In this document: positions 478 through 30,329 of the stretch, piece after piece
Position numbering within the stretch: the stretch's first letter is position 1
Layout of the letters: each line of letters opens with the position of its first letter
DNA from: Gemmatimonadota bacterium
Lineage (GTDB): Bacteria; Gemmatimonadota; Gemmatimonadetes; Gemmatimonadales; GWC2-71-9
Direction: 5' to 3'
DNA length: 32,023 bases
Assembly (NCBI GenBank): GCA_039588295.1
Contig: JBDHAB010000033.1
Location: 1-32,023 of the forward strand
Program-made: the position numbers and the translations under genes
Notes under the pieces: generated by a model
Seen by the model: only the letters and a program-made list of their open reading frames with translations
What the model was told of the DNA's origin: nothing
Database searches by the model: none

Positions 478-1494
478 CTATGGCTCCAGCACAACCCGGC
501 CGATCACGTCGCCTGCGGCGAGCGCGTCGATGCCCTCTTGGAACCGCTCGAGCGGCAGCACACGATCGAGCACGGTGCGCACGATCCCCCGCGCCACGAG
601 GTCGACGCCCTGTTGCAGCTCGGCGAGTGTGTTGCCGACCGAGCCCATCACACTTCCCTCGGTGATCACCAGCTGGATCGGGTGCACCGTGTAGGAGTCC
701 GCCGAGTAGCCGATGAACACCAGCCGGCCGCGCTTGGCCAGCGCACGCGTGCTCTGCTCCATCGTCGCCGTCGTGCCCACCAGCTCCATCACGACGTCGG
801 CACCGTGGCCGTGCGTCAGCTCCCGCACCCGGTCGGCGACGGGCTCGGTGGCGGCGTTGACGGCGTGCGCGGCTCCCAAGTCCCGCGCGCGCTCGAGCTT
901 GGTCGGCGAGCGGCTTACCGCGATCACCTCCGCCCCCGCGTGCCGCGCCACCTGAACCAACCCGAGGCCTACGCCGCCGATCCCGTACACCAGCACCACG
1001 TCCCCCATCGTGAGTCGCGCGAGGCCGGCGGCGTGCACTGCGGTCGTGACGCTGCAGCCGATCGGAGCGGCCGCTGTCGCGCTCACGTGGTCGGGTAGGG
1101 GGACGCAGCATCGCGCGGGCACCCGCACGTACTCGGCGAACCCCCCGTCGGAGATGAAGCCGTACTCCGCGCGGAGCGCGTCGCAGAGGTGCTCGTCGCC
1201 CCGGAGGCAGTGCCGGCACGCACCGCACCCCACGTAGTAGTACACGATCACGCGCTGCCCCTCTGCGAGCCCCGTGACGCCGGGTCCCGTGGCGTGCACG
1301 CGGCCGACGACTTCGTGGCCCAGCGTGAGGGGCGCGACGCCCAAGTTCAGGAGCCCGCTCAAGAAATGGAGCTCCGTATGGCACAACCCGGCGGCGGTCA
1401 CGCGCACGACCGCCTCGCCCGGTCCCGCCGTGGGGTTCGGGACTGTCTCGAGCTTCAGCGGCTGATTGGGACCGTGGTAGCGGACCGCGCGCAT
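478..1494 (-). CDS. Zinc-dependent alcohol dehydrogenase (MDR family)
   Basis: Starts MRAVRYHG at ATG 1494 with GAGG upstream. Catalytic Zn motifs GLCHTE and LGHE, structural Zn CGACRHCLRGDEHLC, Rossmann motif GIGGVG, ends GRVVLEP. Confidence 0.93.
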   Translation of the reverse strand: MRAVRYHGPNQPLKLETVPNPTAGPGEAVVRVTAAGLCHTELHFLSGLLNLGVAPLTLGHEVVGRVHATGPGVTGLAEGQRVIVYYYVGCGACRHCLRGDEHLCDALRAEYGFISDGGFAEYVRVPARCCVPLPDHVSATAAAPIGCSVTTAVHAAGLARLTMGDVVLVYGIGGVGLGLVQVARHAGAEVIAVSRSPTKLERARDLGAAHAVNAATEPVADRVRELTHGHGADVVMELVGTTATMEQSTRALAKRGRLVFIGYSADSYTVHPIQLVITEGSVMGSVGNTLAELQQGVDLVARGIVRTVLDRVLPLERFQEGIDALAAGDVIGRVVLEP

Positions 1495-1907
1495 GGTAGC
1501 CTCGGCGTGTGGGGGTGGTCTGAACAATGTGCTCTCGGATGGCGCTGCGGTACTCTCCCGGGCCGCAGCGCCCACGCCTTTCCCGTCCGCGGTGGCCGAT
1601 GCTTGATTTGCTCGCTCCCCCGCGCAGCCATACGTCCAAGTTCCGACTAGCGGAAGTTCAATTCTGGAAACAACTTGGAGGGCGGGGTGATTCGAGTTCG
1701 TCGCTTCGCCCGAGGCAGTCGTGTGCCAGTCGTCTGCCAAGTCCTGGTGCCGCCACCGCACGCCTTCTTCGGCTCCAAGGGATCTTCGTGAGGATGAGCG
1801 CCACATGACCAAGCGCTTTGACCGTCGCTGCGACGTGGGAGGGGGCACTGCCCGAGCTATGCTGGTGAACCGGAATGCACCGTGTCCAGGAAGCCGGGAC
1901 CGATACC

Positions 1908-24634: not shown

Positions 24635-25468
24635 TTAGCGGTTCTGGAGCCGCGCGATCCGCTGCTCCAGTGGTGGATGCGTGCTCATCAGCTTGAGCAG
24701 TCCTTCGCCACGGATACCGAAGGCGGTCAGACTGTCGGGTAACTGCGAGGGCGCGTCTTTGAGGGACCGGAGCCGGTCCAGCGCGGCGGCCATGGCCGTC
24801 GCGCTCTCGAGTTGTGCGCCGCCCGCGTCCGCCCGAAACTCTCGGCGGCGTGAAAACCACGCCACAATGATGCTCGCGATGATTCCGAACACCATTTGGA
24901 GACCGATGTAGATCAGGAAGCGGCCGCGGCCAAACTGGCTCGCGATGATCCGCGCGATGAACAGCACGAACGTGTTGAGCACACCCTGAATGAGGGTGAG
25001 CGTCACCATGTCCCCATTGACGACGTGCGACACCTCGTGGCCGAGCACCGCCTCGATCTCCTGCTTGCTCATCAGTCTCAGCAAACCCGTGCTCACGGCG
25101 ACGAGGGCGCTGTTGCGGAACATGCCGGTGGCAAAGGCGTTGGGGTCCGGAGAGTCGAAGACCGCAACCTCTGGCATCCCGATCCCAGCTTGTCGCGCTT
25201 GCCGCTGAACCGTATCGACGAGCCAGCGCTCGACATCATTGGAGGGGGTTTCGATGACGTGTGCGCGGGTCGAGCGTTTCGCCACCCATTTCGAAATCGC
25301 CAGCGAAAAGAACGCCCCGCCGAAGCCGAAGAGCGCGCACCAGATCAGCAGCTGCACGTAGGGGGCGTTCTGGGGGATGACTCCCAGGGCGGTCAGCACC
25401 GCCATCGCGATGGCCGCCATCAGCAAGACAGCCACGTTTGTCGCTAGAAACAACACGATTCTCAGCAT
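24635..25468 (-). CDS. htpX: Protease HtpX (M48 zinc metalloprotease)
   Basis: MLRIVLFLATNVAV, SKWVAKRS, PNAFATG, AVSTGLL, AVLGHEVSHVVNGDMVTLTLIQGVLNTFV, FSRRREFRAD, STHPPLEQRI. Confidence 0.96.
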   Translation of the reverse strand: MLRIVLFLATNVAVLLMAAIAMAVLTALGVIPQNAPYVQLLIWCALFGFGGAFFSLAISKWVAKRSTRAHVIETPSNDVERWLVDTVQRQARQAGIGMPEVAVFDSPDPNAFATGMFRNSALVAVSTGLLRLMSKQEIEAVLGHEVSHVVNGDMVTLTLIQGVLNTFVLFIARIIASQFGRGRFLIYIGLQMVFGIIASIIVAWFSRRREFRADAGGAQLESATAMAAALDRLRSLKDAPSQLPDSLTAFGIRGEGLLKLMSTHPPLEQRIARLQNR

Positions 25469-25645: not shown

Positions 25646-25891
25646 TTACGCGGGATATTCAATGATCCCGAATCCAGGGTCCTCCGAATCATCATCCAGT
25701 TCATCCAGGGATGCAGGCTCGGTGGAGCCGGCACTGGTGATGCTGCCCGACAGGCTCCGGAGGTCTACTTCGCGGAGTTCAGACGGAGTAAACCTGAATC
25801 CATGTCGCTCGGCGAACTCTACGAGGGCCTGGCGCAAGTTCCCGTCTTCCGCCACCTGGTTGAGAAATGCAGCGATAGCCTTTCTGGACAT
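25646..25891 (-). CDS. Nif11-like leader peptide family protein (putative RiPP precursor), 81 aa
   Basis: AGGAGGT RBS. MSRKAIAAFLNQVAEDGNLRQAL...AERHGFRFTPSEL matches the Nif11 pattern (FL..v..D..L...L; GF.FT.xEL). DLRSLSGS resembles a double-glycine cleavage site and is followed by an acidic tail. Confidence 0.72.
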   Translation of the reverse strand: MSRKAIAAFLNQVAEDGNLRQALVEFAERHGFRFTPSELREVDLRSLSGSITSAGSTEPASLDELDDDSEDPGFGIIEYPA

Positions 25892-26703: not shown

Positions 26704-27263
26704 ATGGCTCGCATGTATCGGGCACAAAGGCAGGCGTTCCCCAGAACGGTCGCGTGGCTGCGGCAGATGCGTACCACGATCCCCAATCGGGATGGCGGAC
26801 GGATCTGGAGGGCGTTCGTTGAGTATGGGCAGTTTTCGGAACAGGAGGCGCTACGGGCTTGTCCTGGGGACGGGACCCTCTCGTCCGAGTCGCGCGACTT
26901 GGCTCACAGACGCTCGGATTGTTTGTTCGGCGTGCTCCCACTGCCATCATGATTTCCCGCGCTGTCGTCGGCCCGTACGAACGGGCGCCCCATCGTCGCG
27001 CCAACGAACTGTGCCTCGAGGCCATCGTGCTCCACGAACTGGTTCATTGGGGGGATTGGCGAGCCGACAGGGCCCGGAGGCCGGATATCGTCCAGGGGGG
27101 AACGCGGTTGGACGCGGGAGACCAGTTTGAGGTCGCGGCCTACGGGTCCAACGTAGGGCAACCAGCCTCCTTCGATTTGTACATACGGCGCCAGCACCTG
27201 GAACAAGAGCGGGCGCGCGACCGAGAATTCGATGAGACCTTCGGGCGGCTAACAGACATATAA
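26704..27263 (+). pseudogene. Stand-alone zincin metallopeptidase (Tox-MPTase3-like), frameshifted near 26858
   Basis: Frame 1: MARMYRAQRQAFPRTVAWL...QFSEQEALRA. Frame 2: LSWGRDPLVRV...LEAIVLHELVHWGD...DAGDQFEVAAYG. Adding one base at about 26858 gives a continuous protein of about 186 aa with HExxH. Confidence 0.62.
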
Positions 27264-27682: not shown

Positions 27683-29266
27683 ATGAAGCGCCTGCATCCA
27701 CGCTGGTTCACCGTCTCCTTCAGTGTCGCGATGGTATTGGCCGTCGCCGTCTCCTGCGGCAGAGCGCCCGAGCCCGTGAGCGTCGCTGCGCTCGTCCAGG
27801 ACGCCCAAGCGCCGGTGACCGTGACCTACAATCCGCTGACCGGGAGACCGAGCTTCATTCGGGGCCGGATTCCCGTCACGGCGTTCGGGCTGCGCACGGC
27901 TGACACCACCGAAGCGGTCTCGTACGGGGTAATGAGCCGGTACGCCGGCGTGTTCGGGCTGGACAGTGCCGAGCAAGACCTGGAGTACCTCGAGTCGCGC
28001 GTCGACGCGCTTGGCATGCGTCATATGACCCTCAAGCAGGTCCACCAAGGCGTCGATGTCTACGCGGCCCGAGTCTCGGTCCACTTAGCCCCGCAAGGGG
28101 GAATCATCGCGGCCGTGAGCAGTAACGCGGTCCCCAATGTCCGCGTGCCCACGACGCAACCCGACTTGAGCGAGGACTCGGCGCGGGCCATCGCTGGCAG
28201 GCAGCTGCCGAACGGCGCTCCGATTTCGTCTCGGCTGACCGTGTACCCAGGTTCGCGGCGAGAGTCGGACGCCGACTTGGCGTGGATCGTCGAGGTCCGC
28301 GACGACTCGGTTCCCGCTCGGTACGACTACGTCATTGACGCGAGTCGCGGGAGGATTCTCGACGTCCTCGATCGCCTGTACACCAGCCGCAATCGCCTGA
28401 CCTACGATGCCAACGGTGGAACGGTGCTCCCCGGGACGCTGAGTCGCAACGAGGCCAGCGGGCCCGTTGGAGATGCCGATGTCGATTCTGCACACGCCTT
28501 CGTTGGTCAAACGTACGATTACTTCGCGAACGCTCACGGTCGGGATAGCTATGACAATGCAGGGGCGACGCTGACTTCGACCGTCCACTACAGCGTCAAC
28601 TACCAGAATGCCTTTTGGAACGGCATTCAGATGGTGTTTGGTGACGGGTTCGCCGTCGAGGACGTGACAGCCCACGAGCTCACGCACGCGGTGACGGAAA
28701 GGACAGCGGATCTGGAGTACAAATGGCAGTCTGGCGCTCTGAATGAGAGCTTCTCCGACATCTTCGGGGCGATGGTGGATCGAGAGGACTGGATCATGGG
28801 AGAGGATCTCCCGATCGGCGCCATTCGCGATCTGTCCAATCCCGGAGCCTTCGGGCAACCGGATCACACGAGTGGCTGGGTGAGGACCTGTAACGACAAC
28901 GAGGGAGTCCACACGAACAGTGGAATCCCCAACAAGGCCTTCGTGAACGTCGCAGCTAGCATCGGCAAGGGCGACGCCGAACAAATCTTCTATCGGGCGT
29001 TGACGGTATACCTTCACCCACAGGCGACGCTGGAGGACGCACGCTCGGCCGCGCTTCAGGCCGCAGAGGACCTCTTCGGCGCCTCTAGTACCCAGGTTCA
29101 GGCGGTGGACACCGGATTCAACGCGGTTGGACTGGACGGAACCTTCCAGCCCGCAGCCAACAACTGCGGGGTGCCGGATCTCTCGCTCGTCGGGTTCATC
29201 GTGCTGCTGGCGCTGATCGGTCTCGCTGCGATGCTGCGGGCACGAAGAGCGAACGCGTTGACCTAG
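27683..29266 (+). CDS. M4 (thermolysin-type) metalloprotease with FTP/PepSY propeptide, N-terminal lipobox-like signal and C-terminal exosortase sorting signal
   Basis: GGAGGAGG RBS, LAVAVSC. FTP-like DALGMRHMTLKQVHQGVDVY, PepSY-like YVIDASRGRIL. NAFWNG, HELTH, GALNESFSD, EGVHTNSGIPN. Tail VPDLS + TM helix + RARR. Confidence 0.93.
   Translation: MKRLHPRWFTVSFSVAMVLAVAVSCGRAPEPVSVAALVQDAQAPVTVTYNPLTGRPSFIRGRIPVTAFGLRTADTTEAVSYGVMSRYAGVFGLDSAEQDLEYLESRVDALGMRHMTLKQVHQGVDVYAARVSVHLAPQGGIIAAVSSNAVPNVRVPTTQPDLSEDSARAIAGRQLPNGAPISSRLTVYPGSRRESDADLAWIVEVRDDSVPARYDYVIDASRGRILDVLDRLYTSRNRLTYDANGGTVLPGTLSRNEASGPVGDADVDSAHAFVGQTYDYFANAHGRDSYDNAGATLTSTVHYSVNYQNAFWNGIQMVFGDGFAVEDVTAHELTHAVTERTADLEYKWQSGALNESFSDIFGAMVDREDWIMGEDLPIGAIRDLSNPGAFGQPDHTSGWVRTCNDNEGVHTNSGIPNKAFVNVAASIGKGDAEQIFYRALTVYLHPQATLEDARSAALQAAEDLFGASSTQVQAVDTGFNAVGLDGTFQPAANNCGVPDLSLVGFIVLLALIGLAAMLRARRANALT
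29171..29266 (+). other. IPTL-CTERM-like C-terminal sorting signal of the M4 protease
   Basis: VPDLSLVGFIVLLALIGLAAMLRARR: signature motif, hydrophobic helix and basic cluster, lying 5 nt upstream of an exosortase gene. Confidence 0.78.
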
Positions 29267-29271
29267 GGCGG

Positions 29272-29886
29272 GTGCAAATGCGGAGTGGTCTCGGATCCGC
29301 GGCATGGTTCGCGGTGCTGACATGGCTGATTGCGATCATTCTCCTGCCGTACAGTTCCGCGAGCCCGGTGAACGTGCTCGAGCCGTTTGCCACACTCGTC
29401 GCGCACCTCACCCAGTCGGCGCTCGGCTGGGTTGGGGTGGGCGCGTTGCGCGCAGGGACGTTCCTCTATGTCCCCGGGGTGTTCGAGTACGAGATCCGCG
29501 CCGGGTGCACGGGCATTCTACCGGCTGCGGTGCTGACCGTGGCGATTGTGGCGTCCCCTGGGAACGACGTGGCGAAGCGGTGGGGTCTGATCGTCGGGGT
29601 ACCGTTGGTGCTCGCGGTCAACCTGCTCCGACTACTGCATCTGTTCTACCTCGGCGTCCACGCACCGCAGCACTTTGCACTGGCCCACTCCGTCCTGTGG
29701 GAGGGCACGATTGTGCTCTGCACGTTCGCCGTATGGCTCGCGTGGGCAAGGTATGCGCCCTCGTTCAGCGGTTTCCCGCGACGGAGTGACCCGCCGCCTG
29801 GGCGTGGGAAGCAGCTGTGCGGGGTGAGACTCGGCGGTCAGCGCCTCTTGTCGGCGAGCCCATTGAGGAATACGATGAGCGGCTGA
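29272..29886 (+). CDS. Exosortase/archaeosortase family protein (XrtH-like)
   Basis: Multi-TM protein with the Cys-Arg-His triad: EIRAGCTG, AVNLLRL, FALAHSVLWE. Start is GTG 29272 or ATG 29278. Confidence 0.85.
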   Translation: MQMRSGLGSAAWFAVLTWLIAIILLPYSSASPVNVLEPFATLVAHLTQSALGWVGVGALRAGTFLYVPGVFEYEIRAGCTGILPAAVLTVAIVASPGNDVAKRWGLIVGVPLVLAVNLLRLLHLFYLGVHAPQHFALAHSVLWEGTIVLCTFAVWLAWARYAPSFSGFPRRSDPPPGRGKQLCGVRLGGQRLLSASPLRNTMSG

Positions 29887-30329
29887 AGCTCCGCTGGAAT
29901 CGCCGTATCCATCATGCGGATCTTGCGACCCCGGTAGATCACCACGTACTCGAAGAGATCTGCCCCGGTCCGAGGCGGTAGGTACTCCTCCCGCAGACTG
30001 GGGAACTCGATGCTCTCGAGCAGCGAACGGAGTTGCGCAAGACTGTCGGTGCCAATCGTGAAATCCAGTTCGGTCCCTCTGTGGGTGAGGTGCGCCGTGC
30101 CGTCGGCGTTGACGACCAGTTGGTCATCGCGTCCCATGATGCCCCCGGAGCGCCGATACTCGACCAGGGCAGAGGCCTGAGGATTCACTGTTGCACAGCC
30201 TGTAATGGCGTAGAAGACCAGTAGCGTCGAGGCCCAACAAAGCGTCGAGCTGGAAAGCAATGCGCCCAAGTCATTGCGCCGACGACCCACCACCGAGCCG
30301 GTCGAGCCCGAAGGTACCATGTCAGTCAT
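29838..30329 (-). CDS. Lipoprotein with an emfourin (M4 protease inhibitor)-like domain
   Basis: GGAGGGG RBS before ATG 30329, lipobox AITGC. VEYRRSGGIMG...GADLFEYVVIY...DTAIPAELQPLIVFL recalls the emfourin pattern RSGGxxG...AD.f.Y...P..l.pL. Confidence 0.68.
   Translation of the reverse strand: MTDMVPSGSTGSVVGRRRNDLGALLSSSTLCWASTLLVFYAITGCATVNPQASALVEYRRSGGIMGRDDQLVVNADGTAHLTHRGTELDFTIGTDSLAQLRSLLESIEFPSLREEYLPPRTGADLFEYVVIYRGRKIRMMDTAIPAELQPLIVFLNGLADKRR

Follow-up and report, generated by a model that had tools for sequence, protein, structure and literature searches.

The window analysed here, a 32,023-nucleotide (nt) stretch taken at its full length from a Gemmatimonadota bacterium (contig JBDHAB010000033.1, GenBank assembly GCA_039588295.1), carries at positions 27683–30329 (2.6 kb) a set of three genes encoding an M4 metalloprotease, an exosortase and a convergent lipoprotein. 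We propose, with a probability only a little above one half (about 0.57), that this cassette delivers a thermolysin-type protease to the cell envelope, that the exosortase processes and anchors its C-terminal tail and that the lipoprotein inhibits it. The protease gene (27683–29266, plus strand; ATG at 27683, TAG stop, 527 residues) is preceded by the ribosome site GGAGGAGG, and its stop is separated by 5 nt from the GTG start of the exosortase gene (29272–29886, plus strand; TGA stop). The lipoprotein gene (29838–30329, minus strand; ATG at 30329, stop at 29838, 163 residues) has its own ribosome site, GGAGG upstream of the ATG, and overlaps the exosortase gene tail to tail over 49 nt (29838–29886). 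This layout agrees in all coordinates with that given in an earlier annotation of the letters of this DNA (the sequence-only reading).

The exosortase is very probably the sortase of the protease tail. That tail (29171–29263, plus strand) comprises VPDLS (residues 497–501), a hydrophobic transmembrane stretch (residues 500–518) and RARR (residues 519–522), and can be described as an IPTL-CTERM-like variant. It has the features of a tripartite sorting signal: the motif is followed by a helix and basic residues, the protein has an N-terminal signal, the same tail is found on unrelated carriers (S8, M6 and BNR targets) and the enzyme is adjacent. The exosortase matches the family models TIGR04178 (41.6 bits, cut-off 23) and PF09721 (30.6 bits, cut-off 25.7). 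It is small, with four hydrophobic segments and the triad C79/R120/H139, which the earlier annotation had called intact and which is nearly invariant in the 55 related exosortase domains (Cys in 55, Arg in 55 and His in 54). XrtH is the best subfamily for 32 of 32 aligned exosortases, and relatives pass its model TIGR04177 (L081 at 89.5 bits, L097 at 108.4 and P0032 at 101.1).

Loci for comparison were collected by a search of named genomes with the protease (63 loci) and by a metagenome scan with the exosortase alignment (53 loci). The pooled exosortase loci number 63, which leaves 56 non-redundant loci once seven with identical domains are subtracted. Of the 49 loci that include 150 nt or more upstream, 47 have a tailed target directly preceding the exosortase; the two exceptions have a variant tail and a broken gene, respectively. 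The tail profile matches one protein at 47.7 bits in the window's genome, which is 96% complete, with the next match at 14.9 bits (30,300 frames), and this genome has one M4 gene and one exosortase of this type. The only other exosortase in the genome is of the EpsH type and lies in a polysaccharide locus; one PEP-CTERM protein is encoded elsewhere. Since the genome has a single such tail and a single such exosortase, the pairing appears to be dedicated, and the proposal of a dedicated exosortase made from the sequence is well supported by this and by the 47 tailed loci. The pair also fits the published description of a dedicated system (bioRxiv 10.1101/2023.06.07.544157; PMC3237569).

The pair is not specific to the protease, as had been supposed, because the XrtH/IPTL-CTERM-like cassette mostly carries subtilases. 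The 15 non-M4 targets that were scanned comprise 13 subtilases (S8), one M6 protease and one BNR-repeat protein, and in each of them an Ig-like domain precedes the tail. Judged by sequence, the sorting pair is a diverged and portable XrtH/IPTL-CTERM-like cassette with exchangeable hydrolase cargo. Its commoner form (L081–L122 and L132–L135) consists of a subtilase, an Ig-like domain, a VPDLS tail and an XrtH-like exosortase. Single swaps onto the Ig-tail unit are seen for M6 (L113) and BNR (L108), and no curated model covers the tail.

The protease has the hallmarks of family M4, with HExxH, a downstream Glu ligand, a catalytic His and both M4 domains. The Pfam domains FTP (residues 100–144, 36.5 bits), PepSY (162–228, 29.3 bits), Peptidase_M4 (239–339) and M4_C (342–483) all score above their cut-offs. 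Aligned to aureolysin, the zinc motif HELTH (residues 331–335; 28673–28687, plus strand) supplies H331, E332 and H335, the third zinc ligand is E355 in NESFSD and H410 lies in GVHTNSG; the M4 site is thus intact. Among solved structures, the mature part is closest to aureolysin (E = 1e-60) and thermolysin (4e-56), protealysin being more distant (6e-42). The long FTP and PepSY propeptide comes with an export signal, and the enzyme falls outside the protealysin-like branch of the M4 tree, in which the module proteases form a single branch of 15 (support 98, quick tree). The trees are midpoint-rooted, so the order of events given below is a proposal.

The description of an M4 protease ending in VPDLS, a transmembrane helix and RARR in the sequence-only reading holds, while a lipobox Cys had escaped it. 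The signal peptide (27683–27757, plus strand) ends in the lipobox-type sequence AVS-Cys25, a predicted lipoprotein signal on the propeptide. AVSC25 is a looser lipobox match than ITGC45 of the partner lipoprotein (both calls come from a pattern screen, not a trained predictor), yet it is kept: a Cys follows the hydrophobic stretch, 31–36 residues before a fixed motif, in all 12 module proteases with an intact N-terminus. Given this conserved lipobox Cys and the C-terminal tail, the precursor is predicted to be held at both ends. In the relatives from Anaerolineae the signal lacks a Cys and the C-terminal domain is a different one, which is conserved over about 170 residues (L012–L022) and gave no Pfam match for L012, the one scanned. 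This domain may resemble the CFI-box-CTERM domains. Cys403 (28889–28891, plus strand) is the putative disulfide partner of Cys495 (29165–29167, plus strand), which lies two residues before VPDLS. Both are present in the 20 closest of 28 aligned rows, and the other eight rows lack a Cys at the 403 position. The pattern suggests a Cys403–Cys495 disulfide that would tie the anchor peptide to the catalytic domain.

We consider it likely, with appreciable room for doubt, that the lipoprotein (29838–30329, minus strand) inhibits the neighbouring protease. It carries a lipobox, ITG-Cys45, that fits the pattern given in PMC9890683 and has its Cys kept in relatives, followed by the emfourin-like residues RSGG (60–63) and Asp124. 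A profile–profile comparison (hhalign) with canonical emfourins, which were taken from protealysin-like operons with a reference tied to PDB entry 6ZYG, in which D70 was located, gave a probability of 96.6% (E = 5.5e-10) and placed RSGG on REGG and Asp124 on D70. In a nuclear magnetic resonance (NMR) study of emfourin, D70 is reported to be a zinc ligand, with a hydrophobic loop occupying the cleft. Emfourin inhibits thermolysin besides protealysin (PMC9505478). The Pfam model Emfourin (PF20242) is passed by 15 of the 21 proteins scanned (that of the window and its relatives), and relatives of 65–75% identity are among those that pass.

A profile search of 1.84 billion representatives returned 743 clusters at E below 1e-10. 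In the best 150 cluster representatives, the Asp equivalent to Asp124 is invariant (150/150), and a crude screen found a lipobox in 83 and a hydrophobic N-terminus in 38 more (121/150). Signal-bearing emfourin-like proteins are thus not rare, which corrects the earlier description of emfourins as known mainly in signal-less form. The top three Atlas clusters have Pfam Emfourin on 16–40% of their members, with scores of 0.95–0.96. By homology, the lipoprotein is a member of a large, predominantly exported branch of the emfourin family. Its setting differs from the classic one of a protealysin-like neighbour and no signal peptide, since the neighbour is of thermolysin type and a lipobox is present. 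A model of a canonical emfourin has an identical order of strands and helices to that of the lipoprotein model, minus one hairpin, and in both the Asp directly precedes the corresponding strand; this would fit the two proteins sharing one fold with a hairpin insertion.

The three genes also occur together outside this genome. Among the 63 loci found with the protease, four (L008–L011, Gemmatimonadota) have the full trio in the same order, and it is found again in a further genome of the same family (L131) and in metagenome contigs. The neighbourhood check asked for in the earlier annotation thus shows the trio recurring in relatives, the closest of which belong to Gemmatimonadales or Gemmatimonadaceae, and the refuting case named there, that the three genes do not occur together elsewhere, does not apply. 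The trio is kept over divergence to about 60% identity. A convergent lipoprotein is present in all 16 exosortase loci with an M4 target; of the 32 loci with other targets, 25 extend for 300 nt or more downstream, and not one of these 25 has it. Eight loci are cut before the target becomes visible, and three of these have the lipoprotein. Visual inspection of 23 non-M4 loci revealed no conserved inhibitor-like gene on the downstream side of the exosortase. In the exosortase tree, the M4-linked enzymes (19 rows) group on a single branch (99/94). An overlap of about 20–76 nt between the exosortase and lipoprotein genes occurs in 19 of 19 non-redundant loci with both genes, and it may be a passive result of stop position, since the final part of the exosortase is encoded by the complementary strand of the lipoprotein gene. 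The last 30–40 residues of the exosortase (29790–29886 in the window) vary in length among relatives.

Across the phylum, an exosortase match (E = 1e-15) was found in six of 401 genomes, that of the window included. Any M4 match was found in only five of 41 close genomes, from which we regard the cassette as patchy. A search of the 401 genomes with the lipoprotein matched four, three of them beside an M4 gene (the window, G346 and G003), the fourth being a weak match without M4. In the class of one Anaerolineae genome, 64 of 301 genomes match. In three Anaerolineae loci the lipoprotein lies directly upstream of the protease and there is no exosortase. Of the 30 best among 68 Anaerolineae matches, eight have an M4 gene no more than 1.5 kb away, with three layouts represented (upstream, downstream and convergent), and these M4 neighbours sit on separate branches of the M4 tree. 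With the two loci first found through the protease subtracted, six of 28 lie beside an M4 gene, compared with about 0.1–0.5% expected per locus under assumed gene numbers; loci from kin are not independent of one another.

On this basis we propose the following mechanism. The precursor would be exported and, going by what is known of the thermolysin family, lipidated at Cys25 of the propeptide, which would guide folding and be cut off near residue 235. Because the N-terminal lipid would stay with the propeptide, the mature enzyme would need a second anchor. By analogy with exosortases and archaeosortases, the exosortase would cut at or near VPDLS, remove the helix and probably leave a lipid anchor, and the Cys403–Cys495 bond would keep the catalytic domain stapled to the anchor peptide. 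Judging from its homology to emfourin, the lipoprotein would sit on the same face of the membrane and occlude the active site in a 1:1 complex, using Asp124 and the loop that follows RSGG; such inhibition would protect the cell's own envelope proteins. Transcription from the other strand means that the lipoprotein level could be set separately. Historically, an M4 and lipoprotein pair like that of Anaerolineae may have been joined once, in Gemmatimonadales, to the portable exosortase and tail cassette. The fuller version, in which the zymogen is double-lipid-anchored and the lipoprotein founds an exported emfourin branch of over 700 clusters with a Mago nashi-like fold unexpected in bacteria, is put forward tentatively and has the odds against it.

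A number of results weigh against this scheme. For the sorting pair, the window tail has no match to IPTL-CTERM (TIGR04174 / PF18203, cut-off 20.5 bits); six of 12 related tails match TIGR04174 at 15.0–17.8 bits and none of the 12 passes 20.5. IPTL-CTERM was not found in the window's genome, in a search whose control matched nowhere either. The exosortase scores 74.3 bits with TIGR04177 and does not reach the cut-off of 86, and because its own score is below the cut-off while relatives of the wider clade pass, we describe it as XrtH-like and do not file it as XrtH. The profile used to count tails was built from those same tails, which are also plain by inspection. As the exosortases and the proteases each form a single branch, the 16 M4 loci represent one origin and not 16 independent cases. 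The convergent layout means that the protease and the lipoprotein are not one operon. The closest M4 relative without the module (L004 / L136, G009:C86, same family) has a different tail and neither partner in the 7.3 kb covered, and two Anaerolineae genomes with a related M4 have no lipoprotein match. The lipoprotein itself scores 22.7 bits (E = 1.3e-4) with Pfam Emfourin, below the cut-off of 27, and its first binding loop is shorter than that of emfourin. A six-frame search of the window's genome with Pfam Emfourin gave no match, and sequence searches of the lipoprotein against solved structures gave no emfourin match.

The structural comparison adds to these points. The model of the lipoprotein (m2ec3d55816fb, window 29841–30194) has a predicted local distance difference test (pLDDT) score of 89. 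Its match to 6ZYG is weak (Foldseek rank 16, template-modelling score 0.24; VIA Z 3.4, root-mean-square deviation 5.9, 82 aligned), which may reflect the NMR model or a real difference. The best match is Mago nashi/Magoh (1P27, 1OO0), with Z 10.9 and a root-mean-square deviation of 3.4 over 109 of 118 residues (Foldseek E 4.7e-5), the next unrelated row having Z 5.3. Mago nashi is a nuclear exon-junction protein of 8–11% identity to the lipoprotein, and a shared fold shows neither ancestry nor function. The idea of an exported emfourin-like inhibitor, as advanced in the sequence-only reading, is supported in part, by the homology (96.6%, with D70 kept) and by the neighbourhood in two phyla, but the predicted fold matches 6ZYG weakly. 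A Mago-like fold in bacteria could bear on the origin of Mago, or could be a common arrangement of a sheet and two helices; literature searches on a bacterial lipoprotein with a Mago nashi fold returned nothing relevant.

These results lend some weight to an explanation in which the sorting pair is as described and the lipoprotein, though of common ancestry with emfourin, does not inhibit this enzyme and instead helps its folding, adapts substrates or serves as an envelope scaffold. In addition to the weak match to 6ZYG, the strong match to Mago nashi, the extra hairpin and the short first loop, this would account for the 22 of 30 Anaerolineae loci that have no M4 gene within 1.5 kb (some are cut by contig ends), and for the many long members of the family that consist of repeats or are fused to META and other domains. 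Examples are P0051, P0052, P0055, P0056, P0163, P0175 and P0192, which are long secreted proteins with three to five tandem emfourin/DUF6438-like domains or a META fusion. A separate search for longer, fused forms found none, a weak negative as the family profile search did return long members, and an M4 domain was found in none of 30 long members scanned. The models DUF6438 and Emfourin overlap on one domain, and DUF6438 scores equally well for some members. Set against this are the invariant Asp and the RSGG that align with those of emfourin, the presence of family members next to M4 genes from separate branches in several arrangements, and the 20% identity to 6ZYG, the highest among the 50 structural rows listed. 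We therefore regard a role other than inhibition as unlikely, although it survives best of the alternatives.

Less probable again is that cleavage by the exosortase frees the mature protease instead of re-anchoring it, with the lipoprotein restraining the enzyme until release. Transpeptidation by exosortases is regarded as unproven (bioRxiv 10.1101/2023.06.07.544157), rhombosortase targets have been suggested to undergo regulated release (PMC3237569) and the cargo of this cassette is mostly hydrolases, as are all 15 non-M4 targets scanned. Retention is favoured by the archaeosortase ArtA, which is required for helix removal and lipid attachment, and by PEP-CTERM proteins, which appear to be retained at the surface, both as described in bioRxiv 10.1101/2023.06.07.544157.

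Only slightly behind, and improbable in our estimate, stands the explanation that the lipoprotein is a true M4 inhibitor that mainly guards against foreign thermolysin-like proteases, its adjacency to the protease being that of a co-transferred protease and immunity pair. Family members occur without a neighbouring M4 gene, the gene has a separate strand and ribosome site, and emfourin, with its activity on thermolysin, has been proposed as an immunity-like protein (PMC9505478). What speaks for a partnership with the neighbouring protease is that three of the four lipoprotein matches in the phylum adjoin an M4 gene, the fourth being the weak one.

That the tail is a mere membrane anchor, or is handled by the EpsH-type exosortase of this genome or by a Cys-dependent myxosortase while the adjacent exosortase has another job, is very improbable: the near-threshold MYXO-CTERM score and the Cys just before the motif hint at it, but S8, M6 and BNR targets carry the motif without Cys, 47 of 49 loci have the tail next to the exosortase regardless of cargo, and the genome has no second target. 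As a classification of the tail, MYXO-CTERM was rejected on its score (15.3 bits, below the cut-off of 15.85) and on the Cys-less S8, M6 and BNR tails.

Each part of the trio has a known precedent. The XrtH (TIGR04177) and IPTL-CTERM (TIGR04174) system is likewise built on a short four-helix enzyme with Cys, Arg and His, and S8-linked relatives of the window pair pass its cut-off; the window pair differs in having the motif VPDLS and not IPTL, in scoring below the cut-offs and in having one target per genome, a protease cargo and an attached inhibitor-like gene. In the JDVT-CTERM/MrtJ and single-target GlyGly-CTERM/rhombosortase systems (bioRxiv 10.1101/2023.06.07.544157; PMC3237569), one enzyme likewise serves one adjacent target, the distribution is patchy and protease cargo is common, but the enzyme families and motifs are different and the available descriptions include no inhibitor gene. 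The protealysin–emfourin (M4in) operon of Serratia proteamaculans (PF20242, 6ZYG; PMC9505478) shares the M4 gene beside an emfourin-family gene, with RxGG and the Asp equivalent to D70. Here, in contrast, the protease is a full thermolysin-type exported precursor and not a short-propeptide protealysin, and its partner, a lipoprotein, has an extra hairpin and is encoded on the opposite strand with the sortase gene in between.

The closest functional precedent for the protease and lipoprotein pair is that of the potempins of Tannerella forsythia, small lipoproteins encoded beside secreted KLIKK peptidases that inhibit these and protect the membrane (PMC9890683). Potempin genes lie upstream in the same operon and have no exosortase. 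Four M4-family or related enzymes assayed with the potempin PotA were not inhibited by it (PMC9890683). As proposed here, the trio would act as such a pair coupled to a dedicated sorting system, with an emfourin homologue in the place of the potempin. The combination of all three genes was not found in the literature searched, in keeping with the earlier remark that it was not recognised as described; the search did not extend to the NMR study of emfourin or to Haft et al. (2012) and so does not establish that the combination is absent from print.

The partner to which exosortases attach their targets, and whether this occurs in one step, were stated to be open in 2023 (bioRxiv 10.1101/2023.06.07.544157). 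A 2.6-kb cassette with one enzyme and one target, in which the cargo is an easily assayed protease, makes this question testable. Should the lipoprotein inhibit the protease, emfourins would extend from cytoplasmic partners of protealysin to membrane-bound guards of secreted thermolysins, and the 743 clusters of the family could yield protein inhibitors of M4 enzymes. The sorting module exchanges its cargo (S8, M6, BNR and M4), and the inhibitor-like gene accompanies only M4 cargo.

Related loci show further variations. The M4 protease of G009 ends in GGGCGGG and a helix (GlyGly- or MYXO-like), so C-terminal anchors have been exchanged on this protease. A locus of the same genus (L006 / L137, G003:C69) has a protealysin-like gene for a protease with a short propeptide, and immediately upstream an emfourin gene (88 bits) with a lipobox-like signal, LLQGC, at the start of its frame. 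At its C-terminal end this protease has a Pro-rich linker followed by a hydrophobic tail that contains a Cys. In L011, a signal-bearing gene with a BsuPI protease-inhibitor domain (1133–1714, minus strand; 93.7 bits) lies 2 kb upstream of the module, with a penicillin-amidase gene between the two.

Scans of the window for promoters and terminators gave matches at chance level only, and the GC content showed no island at 27–31 kb. Two DNA runs with near-identical pieces are marine sediment metagenomes from a single study; their contigs hold parts of the protease and exosortase genes only, and none spans the module. No RNA dataset was among the listed runs that carry near-identical pieces. Upstream of the module, an HtpX-type M48 membrane protease (24635–25468, minus strand) is the third metalloprotease gene within 5 kb and was not seen as part of the conserved module. 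An 81-residue protein (25646–25891, minus strand) with a Nif11 domain over the cut-off (28.4 bits) and an acidic Ser-rich tail could be a peptide precursor; no modifying enzyme was seen beside its gene. A frame at 26859–27263 (plus strand), 420 nt upstream of the protease gene, matches Tox-MPTase3 (47.1 bits) and looks cut at its 5′ end, since the match begins only at profile position 45.

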